From: Bacteroidales bacterium
Lineage (GTDB): Bacteria > Bacteroidota > Bacteroidia > Bacteroidales > UBA12077
DNA length: 64,000 nucleotides
Reading direction: 5' to 3'
Assembly: GCA_027859205.1 (NCBI GenBank)
Contig: JAQIBH010000040.1
Coordinates: forward strand, 1,825 to 65,824
Each line of letters starts with the position of its first letter. The stretch's first letter is position 1. The notes beneath the pieces are model-generated. The model did no database searches. It saw nothing but the letters and a program-made list of their open reading frames with translations, and was not told the origin of the DNA. The translations under genes were made by a program, and so were the position numbers. Below, piece after piece: positions 1 to 19,806 of this stretch.

Positions 1-2
1 TT

Positions 3-626: not shown

Positions 627-722
627 TAAGCAGTTTGTAACATAAAATAAATATCCTTATAACAAGAGTTTATTCAAAAAGTTATGATTCCCTTTATAAC
701 GGATGAATAGCATAACAAACAA

Positions 723-757
723 AAGAAGCTGTCTCAAAAGGACAGCTTCTTTTTTAA
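723..757 (+). terminator. Rho-independent terminator candidate after the peptidase gene
   Basis: Perfect 9-bp stem GAAGCTGTC / GACAGCTTC (725-733 / 741-749) with a 7-nt loop, followed by a T7 run. Confidence 0.6.
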
Positions 758-759
758 AA

Positions 760-1075
760 TATACTCGTAGGGCAAAATCCCGATAGCTATTGGGATGGAG
801 ACATAGTATTAATTATAGCCTGTCTGCCGATAGGCAGATTGACAAATTCGGATTAGGCTTGGCGCAAATTGTTTTAACAGGGCAAACAGTTAGTAACTGT
901 TTGAGCCAGCTTGTGGGAAGACATCGATCACGAACATACTTCGACAAGCTCAGCATGACAGTCCGAGATCTTAAATTATATTAAATACTGCGTATTACGG
1001 AATTTGCTATATAGGTCCTATAATGTTTGCGTTATAGCCTGTCCCGCATTTTCTGCGGGATTAATATAGCTTTGG
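760..1075 (+). repeat. Non-coding scaffold copy R1 (matches the 3' part of the long repeat at 10294-10680 / 19556-19754)
   Basis: 861-973 matches 10369-10481 at 111 of 113 positions by direct comparison. Flanking stretches (TACCCGTAGGGC..., AAATACTGCGTAT..., TTTGTCCTATAAT...) are also shared with the 10.3-10.7 kb and 19.55-19.75 kb regions. Confidence 0.85.
880..920 (+). repeat. H1 hairpin element, copy 1
   Basis: GGGCAAACAGTT-AGT-AACTGTTTGAGCCAGCTTGTGGGAAG; the same architecture occurs in five other copies. Confidence 0.8.
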
Positions 1076-1120
1076 TTAATAACTTATGTGTATGCCTTGA
1101 GGTACGAATGGCATACTCTA

Positions 1121-2959
1121 TCAATGACTTAGATCAATTACGGAAACAATATTCGAAAAATCAGCATTACAATAAATCAAATACGATTTTTTAAGATTTG
1201 AAAGGATTTCTTTTAACTTTTCCTCAGATAACTCAATAAAAACTTTTTTCAAATCTGAATACAATTCATTAAACGTACAAATGTTATTTTCAAGAGCTTT
1301 TAGAACATATCCGTATTCAGGTTCACCAAACACGATATTTTCTATTTCAATATCATTGCAATATTCTGTATAATAATATATGCTATTGTTTTCCTGAATT
1401 TTATAAGAAAACGTATTGTTTTTATAATGATTTTCAATTTCAATTAGTTTATCCCATTCCTTAACGTTATCCGGTACATTCTTCTCATATCTGAATAAAT
1501 GAAAGCGATCTTCAGTATTTGAGAAATAATCCGGCAACAGGGAAGTGATAACATCATAATCATATTTTTTTCTGTCATCATCTGACATTGAGGAATAATA
1601 TTTTGTCATTGACGATAACACCAAATTCACATATATATGGGAAAATGAAACAATACTATTATTATAAAAGAATCTTAAAAAATGTAGATTATTTATGCAT
1701 TCTTGCACATCATTTTCAGTTTCTTCAGGCACATGTTTTATTACATTGGCGGTAGGAGTGATTCCATTTTTAATAGAATGTTTTACTATAAATAGATTAT
1801 CAGAAAAGCTATTACTTTTATTCATTTTCTTTAATAATGAATCAGAAAGCGCATCATAACCGATAAAGATATTTTTAAAGCCTGCAATGGCCATTTTTTT
1901 CATGATTTTTGCATTGAATAGATCATTTGGTATAATCTCGGCCCAGAATATATAATCTTCTTCATTTTTGAATTTTAAGTCAATTATTAAGTCAAGTAAT
2001 TTCTCGAAATGCTCGAAGCTACCGAAAGTATCGCTATCCACAAATGAAAATGTTGTAATCCCATAATACTTTGAGATATGATCTATCTCATTCACAATAC
2101 ATTCAGGACTCCTGACTCGCAATTTGTATCCTTGATTAAAATCACAAAATTTGCATTTTCTCCAATGACAAGAGCGAATTGTATTTATGGGAATACTTAT
2201 TTGATCACTCTTTTTAGGATAAGGGTAGTTATTTATATAATCATCATAGTCAGGGAAAATATAATTCTTAAAATCTAAATAATCACTTTTATTTGTTGAC
2301 GATTGCAAAATCTCTTCTGCATCACGATACATCAAGCGAGGAACTACTTTAAAATCAGAAGTGTCTTTCTTTATTTGATTAGATAATTCTAATAATGGGT
2401 ATTCGCCTTCGCCCCAGGTAACAAAATCAAAATAAGGACAAACTTTAATTGCCTCTTTTGCAGCTTTCTCACTACCAAAACCGCCAACAATAATTTTTAC
2501 TTCAGGTGCAATTTTCTTTATTTCTTCGGCTAAAATTATGCCCGGAATCCATTGATTATACTTAGCACTAATTCCAAAAAGCAAAATCTCAGTAAAATCA
2601 ATTTTTGTAATCTCACGATGAATTATTTCGAAAATTTCTTCTTTTTTAGTTTGTAAAAACTCCAAATAATACTTCGAGTTAATAGTTTTATAAGTAGAAT
2701 CTAATTTCTGAAGTAATGAAATGATTCGATTGTTGCCTTTTGCATTATTATCACGATCATTTAGGATTGAGAGAAAAGGAAGAATTCTAATTTCGGTATC
2801 TTCAGTTTTCACATAATCAGACATTAAGGATAATAAAAAATTCCAATATTTTATTTCTGTTTCAACACCATTGCTTACCATAAACTTTTTAAGGATGGAT
2901 AGTGAAATAGAAGGACTATATATATCAGCAGGAGGTAGGCAATTTAGAAGAATCTTCAT
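1121..2959 (-). CDS. B12-binding-domain radical SAM protein (class B rSAM-like), 612 aa
   Basis: The N-terminal ~200 aa have a Rossmann-like B12-binding-domain pattern (ILLFGISAKYNQWIPG...KIIVGGFG). The central cysteine cluster is IRSCHWRKCKFCDF, followed by TIM-barrel-like rSAM core strings (FSFVDSDTFG, IFIGYDALSD). There is a C-terminal ~90-aa extension. Confidence 0.8.
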   Translation of the reverse strand: MKILLNCLPPADIYSPSISLSILKKFMVSNGVETEIKYWNFLLSLMSDYVKTEDTEIRILPFLSILNDRDNNAKGNNRIISLLQKLDSTYKTINSKYYLEFLQTKKEEIFEIIHREITKIDFTEILLFGISAKYNQWIPGIILAEEIKKIAPEVKIIVGGFGSEKAAKEAIKVCPYFDFVTWGEGEYPLLELSNQIKKDTSDFKVVPRLMYRDAEEILQSSTNKSDYLDFKNYIFPDYDDYINNYPYPKKSDQISIPINTIRSCHWRKCKFCDFNQGYKLRVRSPECIVNEIDHISKYYGITTFSFVDSDTFGSFEHFEKLLDLIIDLKFKNEEDYIFWAEIIPNDLFNAKIMKKMAIAGFKNIFIGYDALSDSLLKKMNKSNSFSDNLFIVKHSIKNGITPTANVIKHVPEETENDVQECINNLHFLRFFYNNSIVSFSHIYVNLVLSSMTKYYSSMSDDDRKKYDYDVITSLLPDYFSNTEDRFHLFRYEKNVPDNVKEWDKLIEIENHYKNNTFSYKIQENNSIYYYTEYCNDIEIENIVFGEPEYGYVLKALENNICTFNELYSDLKKVFIELSEEKLKEILSNLKKSYLIYCNADFSNIVSVIDLSH

Positions 2960-3191
2960 CAGCTTTTCATATAAGGTATTTAGCTATTATTTACACAAAA
3001 ATAAGTTAAATATGAGCATAATATGGAAATATTCGGATGTTTTAATATTCTATTTAATACAATAGCTTTAAAGCAATCCTTATTTCGATATTGAATAATT
3101 AGTTCTAAAATAGGTAAACTAAATCAATTGAATATAAATTCATTGTTAAAAGTAACCCAAAATAAAACGCGTACAATATTTAAGTCGTTGA

Positions 3192-3316
3192 CAATCGCAT
3201 ACCTGTCTGCCGACAGGCAGGATTACCCGAATAAGACAACTCGAAGTGCATTCTATTTACCCGTAGGGCGAAATCCCGATAGCTATCGGGATGAAGTAAA
3301 ATGTGTGTGGAGTGAT
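3192..3316 (+). repeat. Non-coding scaffold copy R2 (short variant)
   Basis: AATCGCATA...ATTACCCGAATAAGACAACTCGAAG...TATTTACCCGTAGGGCGAA...GAAGTAAAATGTGTGTGGAGTGA aligns with 10235-10307 / 19497-19569 and with the scaffold end at 10762-10785. It carries two inserted palindromes (3202-3221, 3273-3292). Confidence 0.8.
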
Positions 3317-3608
3317 TATTAAAAATAATTTTAGTTCCAATAAATCATCTTTCTAATTTAAATGTCATTGTAATTTATTAAACAAATAAAGATCATTTTT
3401 TTACTAATCATCCTACGCGCTCATTATCAGCACTTTCTGTATTCTGTTAATATCTTTCTAAAAAAAGCCTAACAATTGGGGGTCACCTTTTTGTATATTA
3501 AGGAATTAATAGGTGAAGGCTTAAGAGTAAATATACAGTCACCAGAATTGTTAGAGGTAATTTGCTAATTAAAGAACATTTTTATTCGAAACTTAAACAT
3601 CGATAATA

Positions 3609-4607
3609 ATGAAACAAAAAGTAATTTTTACTGCCGATGATTATGGTCCTATACCATCTATAAATGATGGCATAATTGAGGCTGTTAAAACTGGATGCAT
3701 TAATTCCGTGGAAGCATTTGCAAACCACGATAATTTTAAAGAATCAATTAATCGTTTAATTAATGAATGCGATTCTGATAGCTTTGAGTTGGGATGCCAC
3801 CTAACTATTACTTCGGGTAAACCTATTACAGGTATGAAAAGTTTATTTGTACGTAACTTATCTTTTAATAAAAAAGGATATTTCCGAAAATACACTGATC
3901 TCAGAAGACCATTTAAACAAGCAAAACGAGATGATCAAGTAAAAATACTTAAAGAGGAGCTTAATGCTCAGATTTATCAATTCGAAAAACATGGTTTTAA
4001 AGATAAACTTACACACCTAAGTTGCCATCATAATGCATTATTCTTTTTCGAAGACTACCTAAATACATATTTTGAGCTAGCTAAAGAAAATAACCTCGCA
4101 GTTCGGACTCCTCACGGGATTCCATTTAAAAGACATAAAAGTTTTATACAAATTGTTGTTGCACTATCGGCAAAAAATCTAAGCCTTAAAGACAGGAACT
4201 ATATGATTCAATTTGCTAAAAAAATACCAGATTTATCTAACATGATTAAAAATCCACCTCCTCCGAATCGTCCTGTTTATCATATAAATGCTAATTATGG
4301 ACCTTTGGGTTTAAAAGTATTAGACGAAGAAGATATTGACGAATATGCAGAAGAAAAACATGCCTTACTTAAAAATTATTTAGAAAAATATGAGAATAAA
4401 GGTATCTCGGAATACGTATTTCATTTAATTACTGATGATTTTGCTAAACATCAGGAGTATAAAAATCAGGCTTTATTTAAAAATTGTAATTATACTGGAA
4501 TAGACAGCACTTATTTTGATAGTAGAATGGCTGAAATACGCTCTTTAATTAAATATAAAAATGTAATTGATAATATGACTGATAAAGTATCCTGGAAACA
4601 AGTATAA
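3609..4607 (+). CDS. YdjC/ChbG-family (carbohydrate deacetylase-like) protein, divergent, 332 aa
   Basis: The N-terminus VIFTADDYGPIPSINDGIIEAVKTGCINSVE fits the YdjC-family DD(F/Y)G opening. Later His-containing strings are LGCHLTITSGKPI and THLSCHHN. An 18-nt gap to the next ORF suggests an operon. Confidence 0.65.
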   Translation: MKQKVIFTADDYGPIPSINDGIIEAVKTGCINSVEAFANHDNFKESINRLINECDSDSFELGCHLTITSGKPITGMKSLFVRNLSFNKKGYFRKYTDLRRPFKQAKRDDQVKILKEELNAQIYQFEKHGFKDKLTHLSCHHNALFFFEDYLNTYFELAKENNLAVRTPHGIPFKRHKSFIQIVVALSAKNLSLKDRNYMIQFAKKIPDLSNMIKNPPPPNRPVYHINANYGPLGLKVLDEEDIDEYAEEKHALLKNYLEKYENKGISEYVFHLITDDFAKHQEYKNQALFKNCNYTGIDSTYFDSRMAEIRSLIKYKNVIDNMTDKVSWKQV

Positions 4608-4624
4608 AATTAAAACTTAATATT

Positions 4625-6193
4625 ATGCCACAATATTACGATGCACATTGTCATATCTTTAATAAGAATATTTTTCTGAGACAGGTGGTTGAAATTGCAG
4701 TAAGCTTGCACGAACTCACTAAATTAGCTGAAAAGAAAAAAAAGTTAAAACTTATTAAAAAAACAGTTAAAAATATTGATTTAGGACTAGATACATTTAT
4801 GAATAATAATATTAGTAATGTATTTGACGACTTAAATAATGCATATAATGGTAAGTTTATTATTACTCCTTTACCTATAGACTTGACCTATACCGATGAT
4901 AATGACGGAAGTACCAGAGAAGATTTAAGATATGTTAATCAACTCAAATGGTTTTTAATAAAGATTTTGGCTATTATTGGATTAATAAAAGGATTTACGA
5001 ATAAAGAAATTGATGAAATTCTAAATAAAATAAAGGTCAATATTAAGAAATTAATTAAATCGCTTAAAAATGATCTTGAGCATAATGAATGGCTTATTGA
5101 TAGTAATAATTACAATGATCAGATAAAAAATCATTTGCAGCTTGCAAAAGCAAATCCAAAAGTTAAACCTTTTCTATCTCTTGATCCTCGAAGACAACGC
5201 CGTGATAATAAGAACCTAATGGATCTGGTAGAAAAGTATTTCAAAGAAGATCCTGGATACTTTGTCGGTATTAAATTATATGCCCCTGTTGGATTTTCTC
5301 CAACAGATCCAATTTTAATGGGAGATGATGAGCATAATCAAAGTATTTATAAATATTGCCAAGAAAAGAAAATCCCAATTACAATACACAATTCAAATTC
5401 TGGGTTTTCGTGTTTTTCTAAAGAACTAAGAGTTACCGGATTAATTCGTAACGATAGAGGAAACTTAGTGGCATGCGATAATAAGAAGTATAAGTTTAAA
5501 AAGAAATTCTTTAAAGTTGTAGGTATTGGCGAGGCTATTGAAGAGCGTGCCAGAGTTTTAAATCATCCATCATTATGGGAAAAAGTATTGGAAAAATTTC
5601 CAAATTTAATACTGAATTTTGGCCACTTTGGAGGAAGTAGCCAAATTATGGAAAGGGTTAATTATAGTTTCCCTAATAATTTTAAAGATCTGGATACTTT
5701 TGATGTGACTAAAATGGCAAAAAAAGTAAAAGACAAAGCGAAAAGAGGAAAAGTCTGGGATCTTTTTATGGAAATAGATGGAGTTTATAATATTAAATCT
5801 AATCTTTCAAAAAAAGATCGAAAAGAAACTTGGGAAATATTATACAAAGCAGGAGTAATTGATAACTGGAGTCAGGCAATATTTGATATTATTATTAAAT
5901 ATCCTAATGCATACACCGATTTGTCTTGTTTTAGGGCATTTGATAAAAAAGGGGATACCTCATTTATTAATAATTTAACAAAATTTAAAAAGAACTTTTT
6001 TGATCCTTTAGATGCAAAACACAAAGAAAAGTTTTTATATGGTACCGATTTCTTTTTAATTCTGTTATCGGGTATTGAACCAAAAAATTATGTTAAAACC
6101 TTTGACAAAGTTTTTAATACAGATGAAAGCAAAGATTTTGATTTAATTGCAAGTAAGAATCCTGAAAAGTTTCTTGGAATCAGTAATAATTAG
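4625..6193 (+). CDS. Amidohydrolase-superfamily (TIM-barrel metal-dependent hydrolase, TatD/amidohydrolase_2-like) protein, 522 aa
   Basis: YYDAHCHIF (HxH on strand 1), ITIHNSN, NFGHFGG and LYGTDFF (strand-8 Asp) appear in the order expected for the amidohydrolase metal site. A long Lys-rich insertion follows the first motif. Confidence 0.55.
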   Translation: MPQYYDAHCHIFNKNIFLRQVVEIAVSLHELTKLAEKKKKLKLIKKTVKNIDLGLDTFMNNNISNVFDDLNNAYNGKFIITPLPIDLTYTDDNDGSTREDLRYVNQLKWFLIKILAIIGLIKGFTNKEIDEILNKIKVNIKKLIKSLKNDLEHNEWLIDSNNYNDQIKNHLQLAKANPKVKPFLSLDPRRQRRDNKNLMDLVEKYFKEDPGYFVGIKLYAPVGFSPTDPILMGDDEHNQSIYKYCQEKKIPITIHNSNSGFSCFSKELRVTGLIRNDRGNLVACDNKKYKFKKKFFKVVGIGEAIEERARVLNHPSLWEKVLEKFPNLILNFGHFGGSSQIMERVNYSFPNNFKDLDTFDVTKMAKKVKDKAKRGKVWDLFMEIDGVYNIKSNLSKKDRKETWEILYKAGVIDNWSQAIFDIIIKYPNAYTDLSCFRAFDKKGDTSFINNLTKFKKNFFDPLDAKHKEKFLYGTDFFLILLSGIEPKNYVKTFDKVFNTDESKDFDLIASKNPEKFLGISNN

Positions 6194-6248
6194 AACAAAA
6201 TTCCACTACGTTCAATAATCCAATTAATGCAATTCGAAGGCAAGCGGT

Positions 6249-6545
6249 ATGTATACACAATTTACTAGCATTTGTCCTATAACTTTAGCGCACTTAGCGA
6301 AGCGATTTCACGAACAAAGTGAGTAACAAAGCGTTCTCACGACCCAAGGGAGTAATGTCCTGCATGGAGCCTGTCCCGAACTCCTGCCTGCCGGCAGGCA
6401 AGGTGATTCGGGATTAACATAGCTTCGCTCAATAATTAATTGCTTTTTTTTAGGGTAAGAAAATAAAAATTCTACTTTCTCGCACTACCCAAACGAAATA
6501 CTTTTTTTACGTAATGAAATGGAGTGAAATGGGTGTGGAGTGATA
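6249..6545 (+). repeat. Non-coding scaffold copy R3
   Basis: TACACAATTTACTAGCATTTGTCCTATAA...TAACATAGCTTCGCTCAATAATTAATTGC...AGGGTAAGAAAATAAAAATTCTAC...GAAATGGGTGTGGAGTGA aligns with 10503-10785. A ~130-nt block of nested hairpin elements is inserted at 6281-6414. Confidence 0.85.
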
Positions 6546-6802
6546 ACTACGTTAGTGAAAATTATAAAGAAATCACTAACTTAAAGCAGTTTATAATAAA
6601 TTCACTAAAATGAAAGTACAAATAGGGAAGTATAGTTTATTGTAAAAACTAATAATAAGAAAGTTGCTTAATTTATTTGAATCAAAAATGTAGGAAATAC
6701 TAGCGATTATAACAATAAACTGTAAATATTAGTAAATTCATTTGTTTTTATTGATTATTAATTGCAATATTTGCATAAATTGTGTAAATAATTCAAATAA
6801 AA

Positions 6803-8059
6803 ATGTTAATAGAAATTTCAATAACTAATTATAGGTCGTTAAAAGAAAAATCAACATTAAGCTTAATAGCTGATGGGTACGATTCTAAATCAGAGAACAT
6901 AAATCTATTTGAATATGCCAATGATAAAAAGCTTAGACTTCATAATAGTGTTCTTATTTTTGGAGCAAATGGATCTGGTAAATCAAATATTGTTCGTGGA
7001 TTATGGACTCTAACGTGGTTATTAAATAACCCTAGACACGAAGGAGAACCTATAAATTTCTTTGATCCTTTTAAATTTAATGTAAATACAAAAAATCAAC
7101 CTAATAAATTTGAGATTAAATTCTTAGACTCAGATGCGATTCCATATTTGTATGTAGTTTCTTTTAATAGTGAGAAGATAACAGAAGAAAAGCTAACATA
7201 TTGGCCAAATAATAGAGAAACAGAAGTCTTTACTAGAGAAATCTTGGACGAAAATAGTAAGGTGCATGTAATTAAAATAGGAAAAGCTGCACAAGAAAAG
7301 AATAGTGAAGAAAACATCTACAAAAACAATTTCGCGATTTCGCACTTTTCTTCTCTAACTCCAAATGAAGTGATTCTAAATGCCTTCAATTCACTAAAGC
7401 GAATTCGCATTTGTAATAGCCTTAACATCGGTCATAGAATTAAAATATCTGATGATTTTGGTGAATTACTAATTAATAATGAATGGTTTAATAGAAGAGT
7501 CAATGCGCTTATCCGATATGCTGATTTAAATATAAATCTTGTGCGAGCTGAAAAGAAAGTTGACTCAGATGATCGAAAAGGAATTGACAAATTTAAGTTT
7601 TATACTCAACATTATTTATATAATGGAGATCAACGAACAGATATTTCTCTTGATATTCCTTTGAAAGAAGAGTCTGAAGGTTCACAAACAATTATAAGTC
7701 TTGGAAGTGAAATCATACACGCTTTGGATGAAGGAGGAGCGCTAATCGTTGACGAATTCGAAACTAGTCTTCATCCGAAACTTAGCAAAGCTTTGATACG
7801 TATTTTTCAAAGTAAAAAATTAAACCCCAAAAAGGCTCAATTAATTTTTACTACACACGATACTAATTTAATGGATCATCATATTTTTAGACGTGATCAA
7901 ATCTGGTTTACGGAAAAAAATAGTAGGGGTGAAACTGAATTATTTTCGATGATTGATTTTGATAATTTAAGAGAAGGTCATGTTTTCGAAAAATGGTATT
8001 TGTCAGGCAAATTTGGAGCATTACCACAATTAGAAACTATCGAAAAAGCGTTTGGATGA
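6803..8059 (+). CDS. AAA-family ATPase (AAA_21/ABC-like), AbiLi / OLD-ATPase-like
   Basis: Walker A FGANGSGKSN near the N-terminus; Walker B-like LIVDEFETSLHP followed by IFTTHD (ABC-type H-loop region). It is translationally coupled to an RloB-like gene. Confidence 0.8.
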   Translation: MLIEISITNYRSLKEKSTLSLIADGYDSKSENINLFEYANDKKLRLHNSVLIFGANGSGKSNIVRGLWTLTWLLNNPRHEGEPINFFDPFKFNVNTKNQPNKFEIKFLDSDAIPYLYVVSFNSEKITEEKLTYWPNNRETEVFTREILDENSKVHVIKIGKAAQEKNSEENIYKNNFAISHFSSLTPNEVILNAFNSLKRIRICNSLNIGHRIKISDDFGELLINNEWFNRRVNALIRYADLNINLVRAEKKVDSDDRKGIDKFKFYTQHYLYNGDQRTDISLDIPLKEESEGSQTIISLGSEIIHALDEGGALIVDEFETSLHPKLSKALIRIFQSKKLNPKKAQLIFTTHDTNLMDHHIFRRDQIWFTEKNSRGETELFSMIDFDNLREGHVFEKWYLSGKFGALPQLETIEKAFG

Positions 8060-9177
8060 GCAGAATCACAGGATCAAAAAAGACAGCTCATACTGTATTA
8101 ATTGTCTGTGAAGGAAAAAATACTGAACCTTCATATTTTGAGTCCTTAGAATCCTATATTCGTGATAAATATTCTGATCATTATCCAAACGGAATAACTT
8201 TTGATATTTTCCCAATCGGTCCCGAAACTCAGGAAGCTATAAAGCAAGAGAGTGAACTGTTTTCAAGAAAAAAAACTACTAGAGTAGTTAAAAATGCTGA
8301 ACAAATAATTAATGAAGACATAGAAGAAGAATATAGCCCAGCGCCAATACGATGGGTTCGATATGCTCAGAAACAATCTATAAATGTTGGGTATAACCAA
8401 GTTTGGAGTGTTTTTGACTATGACAATCGAAGTGCCTCACACATAGAAAAGTCTTTTAATCAAGCCGAAACGGCAACGACTGACGGTATTGATAAAGTAC
8501 AAATAGCTTATAGCTCATATTCATTTGAATATTGGATACTATTACATTATGAACTTTATGAGAAGTATTTGGGTTTTTCTGAATGTAAGGATGAAAAAAG
8601 AGAACCTATTGCATGCGGAACTAAAGCTCATTCTGATGATTGCAATGGAAATAAATGTTTAACTGGTTATTTATATCTTAATGATCCTAAGGTTGGGTCT
8701 ATTTTAAAAACTGAGGAATCAACTTTTCCATACATAAAAGAAAATATGAGGAAAGCATGTATTAGGGCTAAGTATATGAGAACATTGCATTCAAAAGAGA
8801 CTACTAACAAATGGGAGATGAAACCTGTAACTACTATGGATGAAATGTTAGAATCATTGATCCCAGGATTAAATAATATTACATGGCATTTAGCAACAAA
8901 CGAAATTGTTTTTACTAATTGGAAAATTAGTTGGTCTCGTAATGAAAGCTTACTAACAATAAAACTTATAACTAATGGGAGAGAAACAGTTTTAATCAAT
9001 GCCTATAATATCTGTCTTTACGATGAAAAATTAGATCACGATGGAGTTAATCAAAGAATATTGAAACAAGGACAAGGAGAGTATGACATTGTTGAAATAG
9101 ATATTAGCAAATTAGACATTATACCTTGTTATATTTCTATAAAAAAAGGTGTAGATACACATTTTTCAAAATTGTAA
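8056..9177 (+). CDS. RloB-like (Toprim-like) protein, AbiLii-like
   Basis: The likely start is the ATG at 8056, overlapping the upstream stop (ATGA). VLIVCEGKNTEPSYFESL is the characteristic RloB N-terminal motif. Later WSVFDYD... and a Cys-rich stretch. The track ORF 7993.. begins upstream inside the ATPase gene. Confidence 0.75.
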   Translation: MSRITGSKKTAHTVLIVCEGKNTEPSYFESLESYIRDKYSDHYPNGITFDIFPIGPETQEAIKQESELFSRKKTTRVVKNAEQIINEDIEEEYSPAPIRWVRYAQKQSINVGYNQVWSVFDYDNRSASHIEKSFNQAETATTDGIDKVQIAYSSYSFEYWILLHYELYEKYLGFSECKDEKREPIACGTKAHSDDCNGNKCLTGYLYLNDPKVGSILKTEESTFPYIKENMRKACIRAKYMRTLHSKETTNKWEMKPVTTMDEMLESLIPGLNNITWHLATNEIVFTNWKISWSRNESLLTIKLITNGRETVLINAYNICLYDEKLDHDGVNQRILKQGQGEYDIVEIDISKLDIIPCYISIKKGVDTHFSKL

Positions 9178-9272
9178 AAGCTGCTGATTAAGTTCTAATA
9201 AGACTATATACATTATGTTAAATAGAAAGTCAACTCAAGGCTTTTCTGGCATCTTAATAATTTTGTCTTAAA

Positions 9273-9314
9273 GGGCGAACATCCAGTGGATGTTTGAGCC
9301 AGGTTGTGGGGAGG
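9273..9314 (+). repeat. H1 hairpin element, copy 2
   Basis: GGGCGAACATCC-AGT-GGATGTTTGAGCCAGGTTGTGGGGAGG. Confidence 0.8.
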
Positions 9315-9444
9315 CGAGTAGTTTACGAGCGATAGGTCTGGTAAGCTTTACACGAGTTTTAGGCTTCTAAATTAACCATAAAACACTATATTTTAACTAA
9401 AACGGCTTGTAATGTGTGGAGTAAGCTATTCCGTAGTTTTAGAA

Positions 9445-9486
9445 GGGCAGTTGTCTAGTAGACAACTGAGCCAGGATGTGCGGAAG
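9445..9486 (+). repeat. H1 hairpin element, copy 3
   Basis: GGGCAGTTGTCT-AGT-AGACAACTGAGCCAGGATGTGCGGAAG. Confidence 0.75.
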
Positions 9487-9829
9487 CCTTGATCAGTTAC
9501 TCGCCAAAAATGGCTCGTGAGATCGTTCTCCCGATATTCATCGGGATCACTAAGTTGGTTCTTTTTGTATTAACTAAGCGAAGCGATCTCACGAACACAA
9601 AGTGTGAGTAACCAAAAAGAATGAAAGAACGGCGGTAGGAAAACATGTGTTAAGAAACCATTTGAATTATATAGATCCCGAATGACTTCGTATCGAGATT
9701 AATTATTCCCGTTGGTCATGAGAACGCTACGCTAAGTACAACCAAATTCGTTAGTCACTAAAACTTCCAAACAAATGGTTTCATTAACTTATGTTGTGCG
9801 TTAGCAAAGAATTTTTATTGCGGGTTGGA

Positions 9830-9871
9830 GGGCAAATATCCAGTGGATATTTGAGCCAGCTTGTGGGAAGG
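9830..9871 (+). repeat. H1 hairpin element, copy 4
   Basis: GGGCAAATATCC-AGT-GGATATTTGAGCCAGCTTGTGGGAAGG. Confidence 0.8.
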
Positions 9872-10007
9872 AAATAAATTATTGGAATGCGTTAGCCAGC
9901 GTTGGGCAACGACGAAGTCCTCACGAACACAATTTTTTATAATTAATCCGTGAGTAATTGTTTTTGAAAATTTATTTAGTAATATTTCACTCAAAAGAAA
10001 TTGTAAA

Positions 10008-10050: not shown

Positions 10051-10083
10051 AAGGCTGGCAAAGCGGCTATTTAAAATAATGAC

Positions 10084-10430: not shown

Positions 10431-10965
10431 ATCGATCACGAACATACTTCGACAAGCTCAGTATGACAGTCCGAGATCTTATTTTATATAAAATACTGCG
10501 TATACACAATGCAAAAGTTATCGTTGTGATAGTCCGCAAATTCCTTAACATAATTTCAATACCGATATCGGACAAAAGTCAACGATATCTGAAATTATGT
10601 TAAATACTGCGTATTACAGAATTTGCTAGCATTTGTCCTATAATGTTTGCGTTATGTTAACATAGCTTCGCTCAATAATTAATTACTTTTTTTAGGGTAA
10701 GAAAATAGAAATTCTACTTCCTCGCACTATCCAAGCGAAACACTTTTTTTACGCAATGAAATGAAGTGAAATGGGTGTGGAGTGAATTCTTAGCTAAAAC
10801 ACATTTTGTTTACTTTTAGATTTGCATTTTGAAACATATTTATTACTTTTAATTAATGTTTTTATAAACAGGGAGATATAATGTATGGAACAATGTTCCA
10901 CCTATCCACTAGTTAGGTTTCATGCAAAAAAAACTCCCGAATCATATTTATTCATTTTGTATTTT

Positions 10966-11604
10966 TTAAACTTCTTTATACAAAATCCAACCAAAAACTA
11001 ATGTCAGTATCAGAACATATATGACCAGTACATAAACCCACTTCCCTCCAAATTTTGGGGTATTGATTGATGATAAATTAAATACAGACAGAATCATTAA
11101 GATGACATAAAGAAGTATTGAAAAAGTAAAATGCGTGAAGAAACTTTCGAATAAAAAGACAAAAGCCAGAATCAATACATTATTATCAAGGGCAAGACCT
11201 TTATACGTTTTACTGTCAATAAGACCATGAACATTAAAATAGCTCAGGCGAATGGCACTGGTAGCAATAATTACAAATGCTCCGGGTATATACAAAACAT
11301 TATAATTTCCGTAGCTTAAAAGTATAATTGCAGGTAATATACCAAAGCTTACAATATCTATCAATGAGTCGAGCTGAGCTCCAAATACACCTTGTACTTC
11401 TGTTCTGTTTTTCATTTTTCGTGCTATTATTCCATCGTACCAATCAAATAATACTGCCCATAATACGCCAATTATAGCTGCAGGAAAGTTTCCACCTATG
11501 GCGAAATATATCCCCAATACTGCACTCAATAATCCAAGTAGAGAACAAATGTTTGGTAAATCCTTAGCATAAGTAAGCATGCTTGCTTGTTGTTTGTTGC
11601 TCAT
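10966..11604 (-). CDS. CDP-alcohol phosphatidyltransferase family protein, 212 aa, polytopic membrane protein
   Basis: DWYDGIIARKMKNRTEVQGVFGAQLDSLIDIVS fits the family signature D-x2-D-G-x2-A-R...G-x3-D-x3-D. The rest of the protein is hydrophobic helices. Confidence 0.85.
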   Translation of the reverse strand: MSNKQQASMLTYAKDLPNICSLLGLLSAVLGIYFAIGGNFPAAIIGVLWAVLFDWYDGIIARKMKNRTEVQGVFGAQLDSLIDIVSFGILPAIILLSYGNYNVLYIPGAFVIIATSAIRLSYFNVHGLIDSKTYKGLALDNNVLILAFVFLFESFFTHFTFSILLYVILMILSVFNLSSINTPKFGGKWVYVLVIYVLILTLVFGWILYKEV

Positions 11605-11605
11605 G

Positions 11606-12715
11606 TTATATGTTTTTTGAATACATTACATCCTTTAGCGCTTCAAGGAGCTTTGTGTTTTCCTCATTGGTTCTGCTTGCAATTCGAATATATCGGTCGG
11701 CATCAGGTTGCATTTTACCTGCAGTGTCTTTTATATAAATATTGTACTCAATAAATAAGCGTTTAGTTAGCTCAGGTCCGCTTAGAGCATTATCAGGTAA
11801 GCGACAATAAATATAGTTTGCATCAGGTTTAAAAACCGTCATTCCCTCGATACTACAAAGCATTTTATAGAAAGCATCTCTATCTGTTTTTACCTTTTCG
11901 CAGCTGTCTTCAAATTCCTGTTTATACTGGGGTAAAATTCGCAGAAACTCTTCTGCAAAACCATTAATATTCCATATATGAATACCGTTTCGAACTACTG
12001 CCGCAAATTCTAAGTTTGCCGTTAACATATATCCAATTCTGAGTCCGCATATGCCATAAGCTTTACTCATGCTTTTAAGAATAGCCATGTTCGGATATTT
12101 GTCAATATCTTGTTCCATACATATTTGTTCCTTATTATCGGCAAAATCAAGAAAAGATTCATCAATGATAAGCATGATATTGTGTTTGTCGAGCTTTTGT
12201 GCCAAGCTTATTAAGTCGGCTTTTGGAACCAATATTGATGTTGGATTATTGGGAGTAACCACTACAGCCATATCGGCTCCAACTTTTATTGCCTCGTCAG
12301 CAAATTTATCAACATCGAGCTGAAAAGATGGGAAATCCAACGGAAATTCTATGGCATGACCTTCCGGTGCAGCATTAGCATATTCATTAAATGAGGGTAC
12401 CGGAACAATTATCTTTTTGGCTAAATGTCCTGAAAGAATTTTAATAATTTCAGCAGCACCATTTCCAACAATTATTCTATCGGTTGGTTGCTTTATTATG
12501 TCCCCAATCAATTCGGCCAGTGCATCTTGCGCCATTGGGTAATTCAATACTAAATTATGAATATTGTCTTTTAGGTGTGTAAACACTGCTTTTGGAGGAA
12601 AATAAAGATTATATAAGTAAGCATGGTCAGTAAAATTATGTCGGTAATAACCGCCATGTTGTTTTGATAGGTATTCGTATTTCTCAGCTTGTGTTTTGTA
12701 TTTATTTTCCATCAT
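11606..12715 (-). CDS. PLP-dependent class I/II aminotransferase-fold enzyme (HisC / CobD threonine-phosphate-decarboxylase-like)
   Basis: IVGNGAAEIIKIL, VVTPNNPT, IIDESFLDF and SMSKAYGICGLRIGY (PLP-lysine context) appear in the canonical order. A 1-nt gap separates it from the downstream gene. Confidence 0.8.
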   Translation of the reverse strand: MMENKYKTQAEKYEYLSKQHGGYYRHNFTDHAYLYNLYFPPKAVFTHLKDNIHNLVLNYPMAQDALAELIGDIIKQPTDRIIVGNGAAEIIKILSGHLAKKIIVPVPSFNEYANAAPEGHAIEFPLDFPSFQLDVDKFADEAIKVGADMAVVVTPNNPTSILVPKADLISLAQKLDKHNIMLIIDESFLDFADNKEQICMEQDIDKYPNMAILKSMSKAYGICGLRIGYMLTANLEFAAVVRNGIHIWNINGFAEEFLRILPQYKQEFEDSCEKVKTDRDAFYKMLCSIEGMTVFKPDANYIYCRLPDNALSGPELTKRLFIEYNIYIKDTAGKMQPDADRYIRIASRTNEENTKLLEALKDVMYSKNI

Positions 12716-12800
12716 GTGTTTATTTCTGCCTTTTCATTATTTATTGATTTATAAAAATAAATATTGATTCTTGATACTTAGCTTCTTAATTCTATATAAT

Positions 12801-13598
12801 CTAAGCACTTGCCTTTTCAAGCTTAACATGTTTTTTCCTTTCCATAGGGAAAAGTTTTTCAGCTTCAGCTAAATCATGAATTGTATCAATTTCGTACCAT
12901 GGTTTATGATCAAAAGAAACCGATTCAAGTGTTAAGCTTTTATTATCAATCATATCAGAAAAAACGGTTTCGTAATAGCAGTTAACATTACCTTCTGAGA
13001 TATATTGATTGAGGCTCTTAATAATTGCCCGCCAAGATGATATCGAAAAACTGTAAATATTAACTGTTTTATATCGAATATCAGAGTAGGAATCTGTTGT
13101 TCCTTTTTGAAACTGAGTAACCTGATTCATTTTATTAACCGAAACAGTTGTTCCATTTAGCCAAGGTTGCATTAGAGCAACAGCTATTCTATCAGGGTAA
13201 ATCATTTCGTCAAGCAAGGATGTGTTTAAGACCAAATCGCTTTCAAATAGCACAAAAGGCTCATTAATAATATTACGAGCTATCCAAAGTGAATAAATGT
13301 TATTAGTGGTTCTGTACAACGGACTATGAATGTATTCAATGCTTATATCTCCTAATCTATTGCCAAGATAATCCATAATACAGTCTTTTTCATAACCGGT
13401 AACAATTACAAGACGTTTAAATCCTTGCTTTTTTAAGTTATTTACTAGTCTTTCAAGAATTGATTTTTCATTGACGAGGGTAAGGCATTTTGGAGAGCTC
13501 TTCGTTAAAGGGAAAAGACGACTACCTGTTCCAGCAGCAAGAAGTAATGCTGTGGTAATACGATTGTCACCATAATAATTGTCTGAATTAATATTCAT
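12801..13598 (-). CDS. Nucleotidyltransferase (LicC / phospho-alcohol cytidylyltransferase-like)
   Basis: LLLAAGTGSRLFPLTKSSPKCL (G-x-G-x-R-L NTP-binding loop), NNIYSLW and a C-terminal WYEIDTIHDL resemble LicC-type cytidylyltransferases. Confidence 0.75.
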   Translation of the reverse strand: MNINSDNYYGDNRITTALLLAAGTGSRLFPLTKSSPKCLTLVNEKSILERLVNNLKKQGFKRLVIVTGYEKDCIMDYLGNRLGDISIEYIHSPLYRTTNNIYSLWIARNIINEPFVLFESDLVLNTSLLDEMIYPDRIAVALMQPWLNGTTVSVNKMNQVTQFQKGTTDSYSDIRYKTVNIYSFSISSWRAIIKSLNQYISEGNVNCYYETVFSDMIDNKSLTLESVSFDHKPWYEIDTIHDLAEAEKLFPMERKKHVKLEKASA

Positions 13599-14337
13599 AC
13601 GTTATTTAATTGGTGTCATCAAAAAAGACTTAAACACTCGACTAAAAGCACCTAGGTGTACTAATTTTTAGCACTCTGATGGCTGGACTGGTCACTGATA
13701 ACTCAACTATAAGTATGAAGTCTGCTAATGTGATGATAGATTGCTTTGAAAGCTCATCAACAAAATTGATAGTGAATGATTGATATCATAAGATATGTAA
13801 TCCGTATGCGAAGGTACTCTAAATATCGATAATTACCAATACTTGCTATTCTTCTTATTTTGTGTGACTTAACGAATAGTACAAACAGATAGCAAAAGCC
13901 TACATTTAATGGCATACAGATTAATAATTCGAAAAGCAAAGCACGAAAACCTAACAATGCATCATAAAACATAAGGGTTCTCATGCGTTTTTAAAGGTTT
14001 ATGCAAGAAATTAACTCCGCCAAATCTGTGATTTGACGGGTAAATATAAAATGCTAAATTTGTGTCTAATCGCATATTTGGCTCAGGGTAATTTTGACAA
14101 GTAAACTTTTCAAAATCCCTTACAGTTTCATATGCTCACCGTTAGGTGCAGGCTAGGAGAGATGAAACGTAGTGCTTAATTAATGGTATTTTTGATTTGC
14201 CGACCCGCAAAGAAAAGAAATGCCAACACACAGGCTGAAATTTCAGCTTGTAAAAGAGCCAAGTTTCCGCCATCTCATATCAAAATACAGAAGCTAAAAT
14301 TGTATATTGCGGAGTTGAAAAATGAGAATTATATTAA

Positions 14338-17300
14338 ATGATAGATAAAAATAATTTCAAAGACCTTCTAGTAAATCTTGGATTTTCAATTAAGGGAGAC
14401 ACATATACTAAGAAATTTAAAGAAACGGATGCTTATCTAAAAGTTGACTTCAAAGCTGAAAAGCTCATTTATCCAGAAGACAAAGGTTTTACAATAAACG
14501 AAAAGCAAACATGCAATTTTAAACAAAAGGAAAATTTTGTTGTCTTTGAATGTGTCCACAGACTTTTTGAAAAACAATATAAACCTGAACATATTGAACT
14601 TGAACCAAAATGGAAAGTTGGGCATGGTGCCAGTGGAGGACGTGCGGATATCATGGTAAAAGACAATTCAGGTAAATCACTACTTATTATTGAGTGTAAA
14701 ACAGAAGGGAAGGAATTTAATGATGCATGGAAGAAAACACTAATAAATGGAGGGCAATTGCTTTCTTATGCAAAGCAAGCAGGAAGCACACAATTTGTTT
14801 GCTTGTATGCTTCTGATTATTTGGACAACAAAGTTCTAGCTGATTATCGTCTTATTACACTAAAAGACAATGAAAAACTACTAACAGAGCTAGTAGACAA
14901 AAACCTCTTTCGTTTGATAAAGCAAAAGGCTTAGATGTTGAAGATATTTTCAAAGCGTGGAAAAAAACCTACAGTCAAGATTACGCTACTAAAGGGGTTT
15001 TCGAGAAAGATATTCCAGCTTATGAAATTGGGAAAACGAAATATACTCTAAAGGATTTAAACACAATCAGCAGCAACCATATTCAGGGGAAATACCATGA
15101 ATTTGCCACCATATTAAGACAACACAATGTTTCTGGTCGAGAAAATGCTTTTGATAAACTAGTCAACTTATTTCTATGTAAAATAGTAGACGAAACCAAT
15201 AACCCTGAAGAACTTAAATTCTATTGGAAAGGAATCGCCTATGATGATCAATTCAGTTTAATTGACAGACTTCAAAAACTGTATCAAGATGGTATGCAGC
15301 GTTTTCTGGGAGAAGATGTGGTATATATCAGTGCAGACCAAATAGATAAAGCCTTTGATTTTTTCAAGAACGATCCAGATGCCACAAAAGATACCATTAA
15401 AAAGTATTTCAAAGAATTAAAATTTTTCAACAACAATGATTTTGGATTTATTGATGTCCATAATGAAAAACTGTTCTATCAAAACACAGCTATACTTCTA
15501 AAAATAGTACAAATGCTTCAAGACATTAAATTAAAGTCTGAAGCTGATTCAATAGAAGAGCACCAGTTTTTAGGGGATATGTTCGAAGGTTTCTTAGATC
15601 AAGGAGTGAAACAATCTGAAGGACAGTTTTTCACACCTATGCCAATTGTAAAATTCATTTTAAAATCATTGCCTCTAGATTCCATAATTACTAAAGGTGA
15701 TGAAATCCCTAAGGTGATTGATTTTGCTTGTGGTGCAGGGCATTTCTTAAATGAATATGCTAAAGAAATTAAACCTATAGTTGAAAAAGAGAAGGAAGCG
15801 AAAATTACCGACTTCTATGAAAATATTTTTGGAGTTGAAAAGGAATACCGTTTGTCTAAAGTGGCTAAAGTATCCTCTTTTATGTACGGTCAGGACGATA
15901 TAAACATTGTTTATTCAGATGCCTTGTCTTCTGGTAAAGCTATGGACGACAAAAATATCAAAGACAATAGCTTTTCTGTTTTAGTTGCAAATCCCCCGTA
16001 CAGTGTTAAGGGGTTTTTAGAAACGCTAACTGATATAGAAAGAAAAAAATATGAACTCATTGATACGGTTGAAGAAAAGAGTTATCCAAACAATAATAGT
16101 ATTGAAACCTTCTTTATTGAACGTGCAAAGCAATTACTAAAATCTGGAGGAGTTGCTGCTATTATAGTTCCTACATCAATTCTGACCAAAGGAAAGGCAA
16201 AAAGCACCTCTACGTCCACTAATATTTATGTGGCGACTCGTGAAATCTTGTTAAAATATTTTGACATTGTAGCAATTGCAGAATTTGGTAGTGGGACATT
16301 TGGCAAAACAGGAACAAATACCGTAACACTTTTCATTAGGCGTAAAAAAGAAAACCCTGCTCCAGCAGACCATTTCAAGAATCGGATAAATGCTTGGTTC
16401 AAATATGATAGATCGAAAGACGAATTATTTGAAGATGAGCATTTAATAAAGCAATATTGTAATCATTTGGAATTAGAGTTTAAAGACTATCAAACACTTT
16501 TAGAAGGAAAGCCGAATAAAGCACTATTAGATACAGATGTTTTTAAGGATTATCAAAAAGAATTTGATAAATGGTCGGAAATTAAAAACCTTAAAAAGAA
16601 AACAACCTTTAAGGCTTTAGGTGCAGACAAAAAGGAAGCTGAAATTAAGAAACGCTTTATTGCTTATCTCACTGAAAATGAAAAAGAGAAACTCTATTAT
16701 TTTGTAATAGCTAGTCAGAACCCTCAAAAAGTATTGATTGTTAGGAGTCCATCTAAAACTACTCAAATGAAAGAATTTCTGGGTTACGAGTGGAGTGCTG
16801 CTAAAGGAAATGAGGGGATTAAATATTTGGGTGGTGTTAAACTTGACAAATTAGAGGGCGAGGATGAAGACGAAGGAAATGTGGCATTAGAAGAAGAAGA
16901 TAAGCGTGTGTTGAGTAATATTTTCAATTTGGACAATATCAATACACCTCTTTACGACCCTCATTACAAAAACAATACTGATAAAATCAACCATCTGATT
17001 AATCAGAACTTTAAAGGAAAAAACATTGATATTCCAGAAGAATTAAAAGAACATGTTACACTCTCTAGGCTATCTGATATGTTGGACTTTACTAAAGTTG
17101 ATTTCAACAAATATCTCTCCCTTACTCCAAAATCAACTTTAGCTTTTGAAACTAAATGGGACACTAAAAAACTATCAGATATTGCTCTTGTAAATCCATC
17201 TAAAACAGAAATGAAGAAACTAAATGAAAGTACCAAAGTGTCTTTTGTAGAGATGGCTTCTGTTAGTGATGAGGGATATATCGCAGAAAAAGAAGATAAA

Positions 17301-18323
17301 AAATATCAAGAAATAAAGAAAGGTAGCTACACCTATTTTGCTGAAAACGATATCATTCTTGCCAAGATAACACCTTGCATGGAAAACGGAAAGTGTGCAA
17401 TTGCAACAGATTTAACAAATAAAATTGGTTTTGGTAGTTCAGAGTTTCATGTAATTAGGGTTGGTTCTGAAATATTGAATAGATATTTGTTTGAATTGCT
17501 TAACCAAGAAGAAGTTAGGTTGGTTGCAGAAAAGAATATGACTGGGTCAAGTGGGCATAGACGAGTTCCCAAAGAATTTTATGAGTCTCTAAAAATTCCA
17601 TTTCTACCAATTGAAATTCAGACCGAATTAGTTAATGAATGTAATACGATTAATAAAGAAGCTGAAAAGGCTAAGAAAGTTTTAAATGTTTCAGAAGAAG
17701 AAATAGAAGCTTTATTCCAAAGAGCATTTTCTAAGGCTGATAAAACCTTTAGAATAAATAACACAGATGTGTTCGAGCTATCGATTGGAAAAAGGGTTCT
17801 AAAAAATGAAATCAATCAGGAAGGAATTGGAATTCCTGTTTTTAGTGCTAATGTCTTTGAACCTTTTGGCCACATCAACAAAGAGCTAATTAAAGATTTC
17901 AATCGACCATCCGTACTCTGGGGAATTGATGGAGATTGGATGGTAAATTGCTTGCCTAAAAACATTCCGTTTTATCCAACAGACCATTGTGGAGTTCTCA
18001 GAATTAAAGGAGACACTATTCATCCCAAATATGTAGCTTGGGTATTAGAAAAAGAAGGAGAACGTGTTAGGTTTTCTAGAACAAATCGTGCTTCTATGGA
18101 TAGCATGAGAGGAATAAATGTAAAAGCTCCTTCGCAGGACATACAGATCAAACTCATTAAAGAGGTTGAGAAAAGGGAAAAGAAAATCAACGCATCACAG
18201 GAAATCATTAATGGAATAGCCAAACGAAAAGAAGAAGTGATTAAGTCCTATTTAATGGATAAAGCTTCATCGCCAAAAATAGTTAGGGCAGCAGAACCAA
18301 AAGTAGATTACAAAAAGAAATAA
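14338..18323 (+). pseudogene. Fused R-M-S restriction-modification enzyme (Type IIB/IIG-like: PD-(D/E)xK nuclease + gamma-class N6-adenine methyltransferase + two target-recognition domains), interrupted by a frameshift near 14899-14934
   Basis: ORF 14338..14934 carries GGRADIMVKDNSGKSLLIIECK (D...ExK). Frame 3 is open from 14874 and encodes clearly coding sequence (DVEDIFKAWKKTY...KYHEFATILRQHNVSGRENAFDKLVNLFLCKIVDE) upstream of the first ATG at 15294. Methyltransferase motifs are VIDFACGAGHFL and VLVANPPYSVKGF. Two HsdS-like TRDs lie in the C-terminal ~400 aa. Confidence 0.75.
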
Positions 18324-18357
18324 TGACTCCAGCCACAATGAAGAAGATAAGTAGTTC

Positions 18358-18795
18358 ATGAATAAACTAACTAAATACGCCCAACACTTCGTTAAACTCG
18401 AATTAATGAAAGCTCGCTTAGAGGTTTTTCAAAATGAAAGTGCAAATAATGGAGTTGAATTTATTGTAAAGACAAACTCGGGGAAATATCATGAGTTGTT
18501 TTTACAAACTATTAATTTAGAAAAGGATAGGAGCGTTAAAATTATTAAACAAGAAATAGGGGAGCCCAAAGACACACTTTGGGTTGCATTAGTACTATTC
18601 ATGAAGTAAATGGAGCCTGTTTTATATTTAATTCCATCTAAAACACTTGCAAAACCAGACGATTATATTTTCATCGAAAATGATCAAAGTGATAGGTTCA
18701 AACACTTGTCTAATTGGGAGATAAAAGTGTTTACTAAAGCAATACCACAACTAAGCAAATACGCATTTGCTAATATGATTAAAGAAATTTCATAG
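18358..18795 (+). pseudogene. Small hypothetical gene split by an in-frame TAA (83 + 61 codons, same frame)
   Basis: ORFs 18358..18609 and 18610..18795 are in the same frame and separated only by the TAA at 18607-18609 (...VALVLFMK*MEPVLYLIPS...). Confidence 0.45.
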
Positions 18796-18824
18796 AAATA
18801 CTTGCTTAAATCAAGGTCAAAATA

Positions 18825-19754
18825 ACATTATGTTAAATAGAAAGCTAACTCAAGGCTTTTTCTGGCATCTTAATAATTTTGTCTTAAAACAAGGAGTGGC
18901 TTACGAGTGATTGGTCTGGTAAGCATTGCACGAGTTTTAGGATTCATAATTAACCATAAAACGCTATATTTCAGCTAAAACGGCTTGTAATGTGTGGAGT
19001 AAGCTATTCTGTAGTTTTAGAGAAATTAGTGAGCAGCCTTGATTTTTTTGGTTCTTTTTGTATTAAGACAAAAAGAATAATAGAACGGTGGTCGGAAAAC
19101 ATGTGTTAAGAAACCATTTGAATTATATAGATCCCGAATAACATCGTATTGGGATTAATCCATGCAAATTCGTTTGTGACTAAAAATTCCAAACAAATGG
19201 TTTCATTAACTTATGTTGAGCGTATGCAAAGAATTTTTATTGCGCGTTGGAAAAAAAAGAAATAAATTATTGAACGCGTTTGTAAAGCGTCGGGCAACGA
19301 CGAAGTCCTCATGAACACCATTTTTTATAATTAATCCGTGAGTAATTGTTTTTGAAAATTTGTTTTGTATAATATTCTTCAAAAGAAATTGTAAAACAAT
19401 TTTGGGCTTAGCCGAAGCGGCTATTTAAAATAATGACTAATTATAGGACTAAGCTTAGGAAGTTAATTAATAGTACAAATAAGTCCCTTAGAATCGCATA
19501 TTAGAACCATTTCTGTATAATTACCCGAATAAAGTAAACTCGAAGCACACTATTTACCCGTAGGGCGAAGTGTAAACGGAGACATAGTATTAATTATAGT
19601 TGACAAATAAGGATCAGGGTTGGCGCAAATTGTGTTAACATAAAATAAAACGATCACGAACAGATAAACTGTCCGAGATCTTATTTTATATTAAATACTG
19701 CGTATATACAATTTGCTGGGATTTGTCCTATAATTTATATTATGTTAAATAGGA
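18825..19754 (+). repeat. Non-coding scaffold copy R6 (~0.93 kb, 'empty' version lacking most hairpin inserts)
   Basis: Collinear with 9210-10660. It starts ACATTATGTTAAATAGAAAG and ends ATTATGTTAAATAGGA, so it is bounded by a TTATGTTAAATAG direct repeat. Confidence 0.9.
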
Positions 19755-19765
19755 TATTTAAATAT

Positions 19766-19794
19766 ATAGGGAGATAAATTAATTACCTCCCTAT
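19766..19794 (-). terminator. Terminator-like hairpin downstream of the TPR gene
   Basis: ATAGGGAG / CTCCCTAT 8-bp stem with a 13-nt loop, 12 nt past the stop codon, followed on the minus strand by a T/A-rich run. Confidence 0.45.
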
Positions 19795-19806
19795 TTGAAT
19801 ATAATA

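Follow-up and report, generated by a model that had tools for sequence, protein, structure and literature searches.

We analyzed a 19-kb gene island in a 64-kb window of DNA (the whole stretch considered here) from a Bacteroidales bacterium. The island lies between the gene of an M3 peptidase and a TPR/gyrA block, and its cargo genes are bordered by copies of a non-coding scaffold that carry dif or dif-like sites. XerC and XerD act at dif, and CTXphi, TLCphi, VGJphi and the gonococcal genetic island, the integrative mobile elements exploiting Xer (IMEX), integrate through XerC/XerD.

The left flank in this genome is the 3' part of the M3 peptidase gene (30-626, + strand; Pfam Peptidase_M3), and a full-length M3 peptidase gene was found on a 14.5-kb contig from another sample (L124). 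The first cargo gene encodes a B12-binding radical SAM enzyme (1121-2959, - strand; Pfam and NCBIfam). It is followed by genes for a YdjC-like deacetylase and an Amidohydro_2 protein (3609-6193, +; domain searches) and by an AbiLi/AbiLii defence pair, formed by an AAA_21 ATPase and RloB (6803-9177, +; Pfam and PADLOC). The PADLOC scores of this pair were 7.8e-84 for AbiLi and 2e-19 for AbiLii; the exact RloB protein is not on record. Domain searches placed a CDP-alcohol phosphatidyltransferase, a CobD/HisC-like pyridoxal phosphate (PLP) enzyme and a nucleotidyltransferase at 10966-13598 (-), and this three-gene operon is of the head-group type. The last large cargo gene, assigned from PADLOC and the reading frames, is a Type IIG restriction-modification-specificity gene (14338-18323, +). 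Residues 1-190 and 314-1270 of the PADLOC Type IIG model are split over two open reading frames (ORFs), a 198-aa HSDR_N ORF (14338-14934) and a 1009-aa methylase/specificity ORF (15294-18323). An earlier note on this DNA had listed a fused restriction-modification-specificity enzyme; this and the ORF at 14338-14934 form one frameshifted Type IIG gene. The split is read most simply as a 1-nt frameshift, with an A missing from the A5 run at 14897-14901. It was called alike in two other samples, and L003, from a third sample, is split differently. The ORF map and the domain calls of that note were otherwise borne out by the ORF listing and the domain searches.

Directly after the Type IIG gene lies orf145 (18358-18795, +), which has an in-frame stop at 18607-18609 and was called as two small ORFs. 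Intact homologues stand in the same place beside the scaffold in three related loci (L114, 4973-5410; L120, 12056-12496; L122, 12139-12663), and orf145 directly precedes a scaffold start in four lineages. No relative of orf145 was found in Pfam, PHROG, PADLOC or PDB sequences. It could be the own gene of the scaffold backbone; a function, for example as an Xer helper, is an unsupported guess. On the right, TPR (19807-20976, -) and gyrA (21064-23607, -) form the conserved flank (19807-23607, -), as shown by Pfam and by synteny in seven relatives. The earlier note had seen no integrase or transposase, and Pfam agreed: neither the island ORFs, including four scaffold ORFs, nor 21 further ORFs of the window gave a recombinase or transposase domain. 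ARAGORN found no tRNA or tmRNA in the 64 kb.

Self-comparison of the window showed an ORF-free master scaffold at 9210-10790 and colinear copies of it, all on the + strand, the orientation that had been described before. The aligned copy at 759-1035 corresponds to master 10290-10655, that at 3177-3315 to master 10218-10323 joined to 10761-10785, and that at 6251-6543 to master 10612-10785. The longest copy, 18825-19752, is 74-86% identical to the master by segment (BLAST E values 1e-52 to 1e-79). No scaffold copy was found in the 24-64 kb part of the window, except for a 23-nt motif at 27133-27190. The claim that every inter-module gap carries the repeat held only in part. The repeats on the + strand do mark module borders, but 14065-14200 shares no more than an 11-mer with it (E = 0.6), and thus not every gap carries a copy.

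The five scaffold features, S1 to S5 from left to right, differ in how complete they are. S1 (759-1090, +) corresponds to master 10290-10690 and contains a dif-like site at 1013-1035 (AGGTCCTATAA TGTTTGCG TTAT), which is interrupted by a GC-rich palindrome at about 1036-1063. S2 (3177-3315, +) is a remnant from which the stretch expected to hold the core site is deleted. S3 (6251-6543, +) has an interrupted core followed by a conserved 130-bp segment. Its site at 6272-6290 consists of the XerC arm and the spacer (TTGTCCTATAA CTTTAGCG), about 123 nt of small hairpin insertions replace TTATG after the spacer, and the segment (6414-6543) is 93% identical to 10657-10785. S4 (9210-10662, +) is a full scaffold. 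It starts at an XerD-arm half-site, TTATGTTAAAT (9213-9223), contains five GGGC-hairpin units (at 9273, 9445, 9830, 10008 and 10388) and, at 10067-10189, an inverted dif-like site that is divided by two 46-nt units, and ends in the dif-like site TTGTCCTATAA TGTTTGCG TTATGTTAACA (10633-10662). The conserved segment of about 130 bp follows at 10663-10785 (+); it lies after secondary sites and before cargo, and recurs in the related locus L118 at the island's far border. S5 (18825-19722, +) has no GGGC hairpins, starts at the half-site TTATGTTAAAT (18828-18838) and ends at dif. A 14-nt direct repeat, ATTATGTTAAATAG, which contains TTATGTTAAAT, brackets the copy 18825-19752 and also begins the master.

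The candidate chromosomal dif lies at 19723-19750 (+), 57 bp from the TPR stop codon, and reads TTGTCCTATAA TTTATA TTATGTTAAAT. TTATGTTAAAT is the XerD arm of E. coli dif. In the 867 kb made up of the window and the fetched loci, sequences with at most six mismatches to this dif occurred only at orthologous sites. The reference for comparison was the set of Bacteroidetes dif predictions in the supplement of Kono et al. 2011 (PMC3025954). The candidate was identical at 26 of 28 positions to the predicted dif of Gramella forsetii (TTGTACTATAATTTATATTATGTAAAAT) and likewise to that of Flavobacterium johnsoniae (TTGACCTATAATTTATATTATGTAAAAT), and at 25 of 28 to that of Cytophaga hutchinsonii (TTGTTATATAATTTACATTATGTTAAAT).

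The sites and scaffolds are arranged in a repeat unit, in the order dif-like site, segment of about 130 bp, cargo, half-site, non-coding scaffold of about 0.9-1.5 kb, and next site. The half-site of the unit is (AATAACA)TTATGTTAAAT AGAAAG. The border sites at 1013, 6272, 10633 and 19723 are all on the + strand and thus in direct orientation, those at 1013 and 6272 being interrupted. At the end of each long scaffold copy stands dif or a dif-like site whose spacer is 8 nt long. In the secondary sites (10633, 1013 and 6272) the XerC arm is kept, the spacer is longer and the right arm is slightly altered. Homology between the copies (S5, S4, S1 and S3) stops at the junction of XerC arm and spacer; to the right of this junction, copies of the dif type continue into the TPR side and those of the secondary type into the 130-bp segment, and a change of XerD arm brings a change of spacer type. 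The sole perfect dif is the copy beside the conserved TPR flank, and the copies to the left of it have 8-nt spacers or are interrupted or truncated. Their decay grows with distance from dif: S5 is clean, S4 has five hairpins and a split inverted site, and farther left S3 and S1 have interrupted cores and S2 has lost its core. Such a gradient is what serial insertion at an active dif predicts, with the oldest units farthest away. S4 and S5 diverge from each other about as much as S5 diverges from the scaffolds of other species (78-86% identity), which argues for separate acquisitions and not for duplication in place.

The corresponding loci of relatives were fetched from TPR homologues with 10-kb flanks. 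Seven loci (L115, L116 and L118-L122) have the right flank in common, with cinA, L28, L33, ftsY, rimO, (redoxin,) clpB, gyrA and TPR. The 28-mer, with at most two changes, lies 60-90 bp past TPR in L063, L114, L115, L116 and L118-L122; dif is found at the same place in L001-L004 too, and a variant with four changes in the distant L019. The DNA across dif from TPR was compared and differs between lineages; L116 and L118 have one cargo in common, which consists of Vsr, AAA_21, a response regulator, a histidine kinase and Dcm. Beyond dif, L115 carries DUF2007, a hydrolase and an 878-aa protein; L119 carries holin and glucosaminidase genes (11253-21176) of phage-like lysis type; L121 carries a phage-like amidase/endolysin block (11490-15061), and no second dif-like site closing this block was found within the locus. 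PIN, AAA_33 and orf145 lie there in L122, orf145 in L120, M78, DUF4411 and orf145 in L114, and a sugar transferase and a Mur-ligase-like gene in L063.

The closest pair of loci was the most informative. The TPR protein encoded in L118 is the same as that of L119, and over 11,248 bp the two loci are 99.9% identical. This homology ends inside the XerC arm of dif, at which L118 has a defence island and L119 the phage-like lysis genes. The position of the break is direct evidence of content exchange at dif between close strains. The earlier note had proposed recombination at a repeated scaffold; the locus content does vary among relatives, but the breaks lie at the junction of XerC arm and spacer, and dif had been overlooked. 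The cargo of L118 and L116 is bordered on one side by scaffold and dif, and on the other by a scaffold end, the long-spacer site CCTATAA TGTCCTGCA TTATGTTAAT and the 130-bp segment. A scaffold copy follows other cargo in L106 (SIR2, AAA_21 and DUF4276) and L113 (pbpC and a small ORF). L106 (JAUVLT010000077.1) is a 4-kb contig binned as 'Mycoplasmatota' with a Bacteroidales-type scaffold copy, and is probably mis-binned.

The M3 peptidase had been regarded as a core flank. It does belong to the core genes, but its place beside this locus is not conserved: in the 4.6-Mb contig of which L118 is part, about 1.96 Mb separate it from dif. In another relative, unrelated genes follow it. An empty site with M3 beside dif was looked for in relatives and none was found, M3 being located elsewhere. 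In other samples the island is as in the window: L124 carries M3, S1, the radical SAM gene, S2, YdjC, S3, AbiL, S4 and the CDP-alcohol phosphatidyltransferase gene in the same order, and L001 and L002 span gyrA to the CDP-alcohol phosphatidyltransferase gene, also in the same order.

The breaks of homology at the junction of XerC arm and spacer point to site-specific recombination by host XerC/XerD rather than to general recombination anywhere in the scaffold, and Xer-dependent insertion at dif would account for the missing integrase. We consider it probable that host XerC/XerD built the island at dif as a stack of gene modules, an IMEX-like array, although the Xer dependence and the mobility of the modules are inferred. 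In such a process, an incoming circular or single-stranded module with a dif-like attP would recombine with dif by an exchange on the XerC side. Its own spacer and XerD arm would go to the far (left) junction, and the functional dif would stay next to TPR. The next module would land again at the same dif, so that the oldest modules would be found farthest left and decaying. Long spacers and insertions in the old sites would make these inert and prevent deletion of the array in dimer resolution.

Several observations weigh against this explanation. Neither xerC nor xerD was found in the window. The modules have no replication or transfer genes, and since they encode nothing for transfer they would depend on transformation or a helper. 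The secondary spacers are 8-9 nt long, and the scaffold-start sites have only a 2-nt gap after an ATAA motif, so that both are only putative substrates of Xer. No site lies between the two divergent operons, in the gap at 13599-14337; unit 4 therefore consists of two operons, the joining of which is unexplained. The left border of the island has no anchor in relatives. No structural variant, excised circle, empty site or alternative module order of the island was seen, and the three metagenomes are alike; the module swapping within the species that the earlier note had envisaged was not seen. A peak of cumulative GC skew lies near 20 kb, but since skew follows gene orientation in the window, the peak gives no independent proof of a terminus.

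A first alternative to a stack built by XerC/XerD is that the scaffold serves as portable homology. General homologous recombination anywhere in the copies, for example after natural transformation, would then add, remove or exchange modules, and no site-specific step would be involved. The copies have stretches of up to 230 bp in common at 85-95% identity, and S2 resembles a deletion between scaffold parts. In addition, 861-973 and 10369-10481 differ at exactly the 2 of 113 positions counted earlier (98% identity), which suggests later, recent gene conversion between them. By this identity, homologous recombination or gene conversion between copies may act besides the Xer route. As the source of the island, however, it is unlikely, since the right breakpoints of all copies and of L118/L119 coincide with the dif core and do not scatter, the spacer type changes together with the XerD arm, and in every one of the eleven related loci it is dif that occupies this place.

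A second alternative is that the scaffold is a functional element of the terminus, either accessory DNA for Xer/FtsK or a long non-coding RNA (ncRNA), and that unrelated insertions duplicated it and left the partial copies as by-products. The aligned scaffold is 78-86% identical across species, compared with 71-84% for the coding DNA of gyrA and TPR. A stretch of about 60 nt on the XerC side is kept in several lineages, as is an inverted degenerate dif-like copy (GACATAGTATTAATTATAG..ACAAAT). This copy starts at 19581, 146 nt upstream of 19727 within dif, and has equal spacing in the window, L114 and L116. The single-stranded DNA (ssDNA) fold of 19410-19765 has a z-score of -3.8; in it, 19581-19607 is predicted to pair with 19719-19744, with about 100 nt looped out. 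However, no match to the scaffold was found in Rfam 15 at the gathering score, and nothing credible was found in 1-20000 even at E <= 1. The backbone also tolerates many insertions that are present in one copy and absent from another, the copies in L106 and L113 stand behind unrelated genes, and scaffold is scarce or missing next to dif in L115, L119 and L121. We regard this second alternative as quite improbable. Readings as an origin of replication and as a giant ncRNA had no support and were dropped. An assembly artefact, in which the repeats gave a chimeric contig with an unreal island order, would fit the same-population short-read contigs, which often end in or near scaffold copies, but is extremely improbable because contigs from two other metagenomes (L124 and L001/L002) give the M3-to-gyrA order.

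The island was also compared with known systems. IMEX arrays, as exemplified by TLC-CTX-RS1 of Vibrio cholerae and by the gonococcal genetic island, lie at the chromosomal dif, have dif-like direct repeats and no integrase of their own, and are tandem arrays with one functional dif at one end and poor secondary sites that stabilise the array. The island likewise has the dif position, direct dif-like borders (found in L118 and L116 too) and no recombinase of its own. Presence and absence with the junction at the dif core was seen for the site in relatives, L118 versus L119, and the modules of the window are alike in three samples. The island differs from IMEX arrays in that its modules are without phage, replication or secretion genes, and in having a common 1-1.6-kb non-coding backbone, defence and enzyme cargo and an uncultured Bacteroidales host; its dependence on Xer is putative. 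No description of defence-carrying modules at dif in Bacteroidota was found in the literature searched, the coverage of which was partial.

Other classes of element fit less well. In Acinetobacter pdif modules, small gene modules (resistance, toxin-antitoxin) also have XerC/D-like borders and no recombinase of their own, but these are plasmid-borne with alternating inverted sites. A pdif module was rejected because the border sites here are direct and the context, at the chromosomal dif, consists of chromosomal core genes. Tandem tRNA/tmRNA islands resemble the locus in that serial insertion leaves a row of partial target copies in one orientation. They need an island-encoded tyrosine integrase and a tRNA gene, however, and this candidate was rejected since neither an integrase nor a tRNA or tmRNA was found. 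The earlier note had excluded an integron, a transposon and an integrative and conjugative element, and no such machinery is present: an integron was rejected on the missing integrase domain, the mixed gene orientation and repeats of 0.1-1.6 kb that are not attC-like, and a composite transposon or element bounded by insertion sequences on the missing transposase domain and the direct orientation of all repeats.

Small phages of the phylum use the same kind of site. Integrase-less microviruses and PhiCjT23-like ssDNA phages have been described between dif-like repeats in Bacteroidetes (PMC3091885, PMC9719478), and Bacteroidetes are reported to have xerC and xerD (PMC3091885). The proviruses of this type (BMV microviruses and PhiCjT23-like; PMC3091885, PMC9719478) agree with the island in phylum and in the kind of attachment site, but are 5-8-kb viruses with capsid and Rep genes and have no similarity to the scaffold beyond the core. 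The exact 24-nt dif core, CCTATAATTTATATTATGTTAAAT, was found in 29 IMG/VR viral contigs (L129-L157), mostly near contig ends, including a microvirus (Phage_F and Rep) and an inovirus-like element (Rep_trans and Zot). No scaffold similarity beyond the core was found in these contigs. The master scaffold had no BLAST match in phage and plasmid collections, and two scaffold patterns scanned in IMG/VR gave none either; in JGI metagenomes, the pattern was found at three loci only. Promoter and terminator scans gave counts no higher than in shuffled sequence.

The window recalls attP(+) of CTXphi, a folded single-strand site, in having inverted dif-like copies close to the direct dif, with arms that are predicted to pair and a spacer that would stay unpaired. 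A better inverted dif-like site is present at 19423-19451, about 270 nt upstream of dif. In contrast to an integrated CTX prophage, both inverted copies here are at the same end of the integrated unit, and the pairing comes from in-silico folding, so that the resemblance to a folded attP is only a lead.

The scaffold also contains small repeats. The GGGC hairpin (36-43 nt) has the form GGGC-N8-AGT-N8'-GAGCCAG-NN-TGTG and occurs on the + strand at 880-915, 9273-9308, 9445-9480, 9830-9865, 10008-10043 and 10388-10423. It was found in 107 stretches of GTDB genomes (L005-L111), nearly all of them metagenome-assembled genomes (MAGs) of uncultured Bacteroidota, with as many as about 10 contigs carrying it in one MAG. 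In 73 of the 80 distinct matches, 7 or more of the 8 pairs form in the unconstrained arms, with 54 different arms; 87 of the 107 stretches are outside long open frames, and the flanks often pair around the motif. The hairpin has no Rfam match, and is precisely present or absent between scaffold copies, like a small mobile element or one resembling repetitive extragenic palindromes. The two tandem 46-nt units at 10086-10177 (TAACTGCGAAGCTCTCACGAACACA...GTGAG) lie in the spacer of the inverted dif-like site, with TTA repeated at the joints, and related CTCACGAAC units are found at 6287-6340, 9574-9610 and 9915-9960. GC-rich mini-palindromes (CCTGTCTGCCGAYAGGCAG and similar) are present in the AT-rich scaffold at 821-840, 1040-1063, 3204-3222 and 6372-6402, and in L106 (about 3427) and L113 (about 3108). 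Several of them lie in or directly after Xer-type cores, as if old sites were preferred or their disruption selected. The motif ACTTCGAYAARCTCAGTRTGAC occurs once per scaffold copy, for example at 10446-10468, and as an inverted pair at 27133-27190 between the redoxin and rimO genes, which looks like a terminator-type hairpin derived from a dispersed short repeat. Farther to the right, Rfam identified a bacterial class A RNase P RNA at 52557-52898 (-; 199 bits).

A more specific version of the Xer-built stack may be put forward only tentatively, and we hold it to be rather doubtful. The units would form a non-autonomous family of cargo carriers in uncultured Bacteroidales, with a protein-free backbone of 1-1.6 kb, a dif-like attP and CTXphi-like inverted copies that fold as ssDNA. 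Any gene cassette, such as a defence system or an enzyme operon, could be delivered to dif by host Xer after ssDNA uptake or on ssDNA phages, dif would act as an integrase-free, integron-like platform, and hairpin elements in old cores would lock the array.

If the island is a stack built at dif by XerC/XerD, the dif of Bacteroidota would collect phage-defence and metabolic modules and not just small ssDNA phages, and modules without mobility genes would ride on a common non-coding backbone. Variable defence islands in the MAGs of this phylum could then be found by a simple rule, namely to search beside dif, and the formation of integrase-less islands would have a testable case. The absence of a recombinase nearby should not be taken as absence of site-specific recombination.

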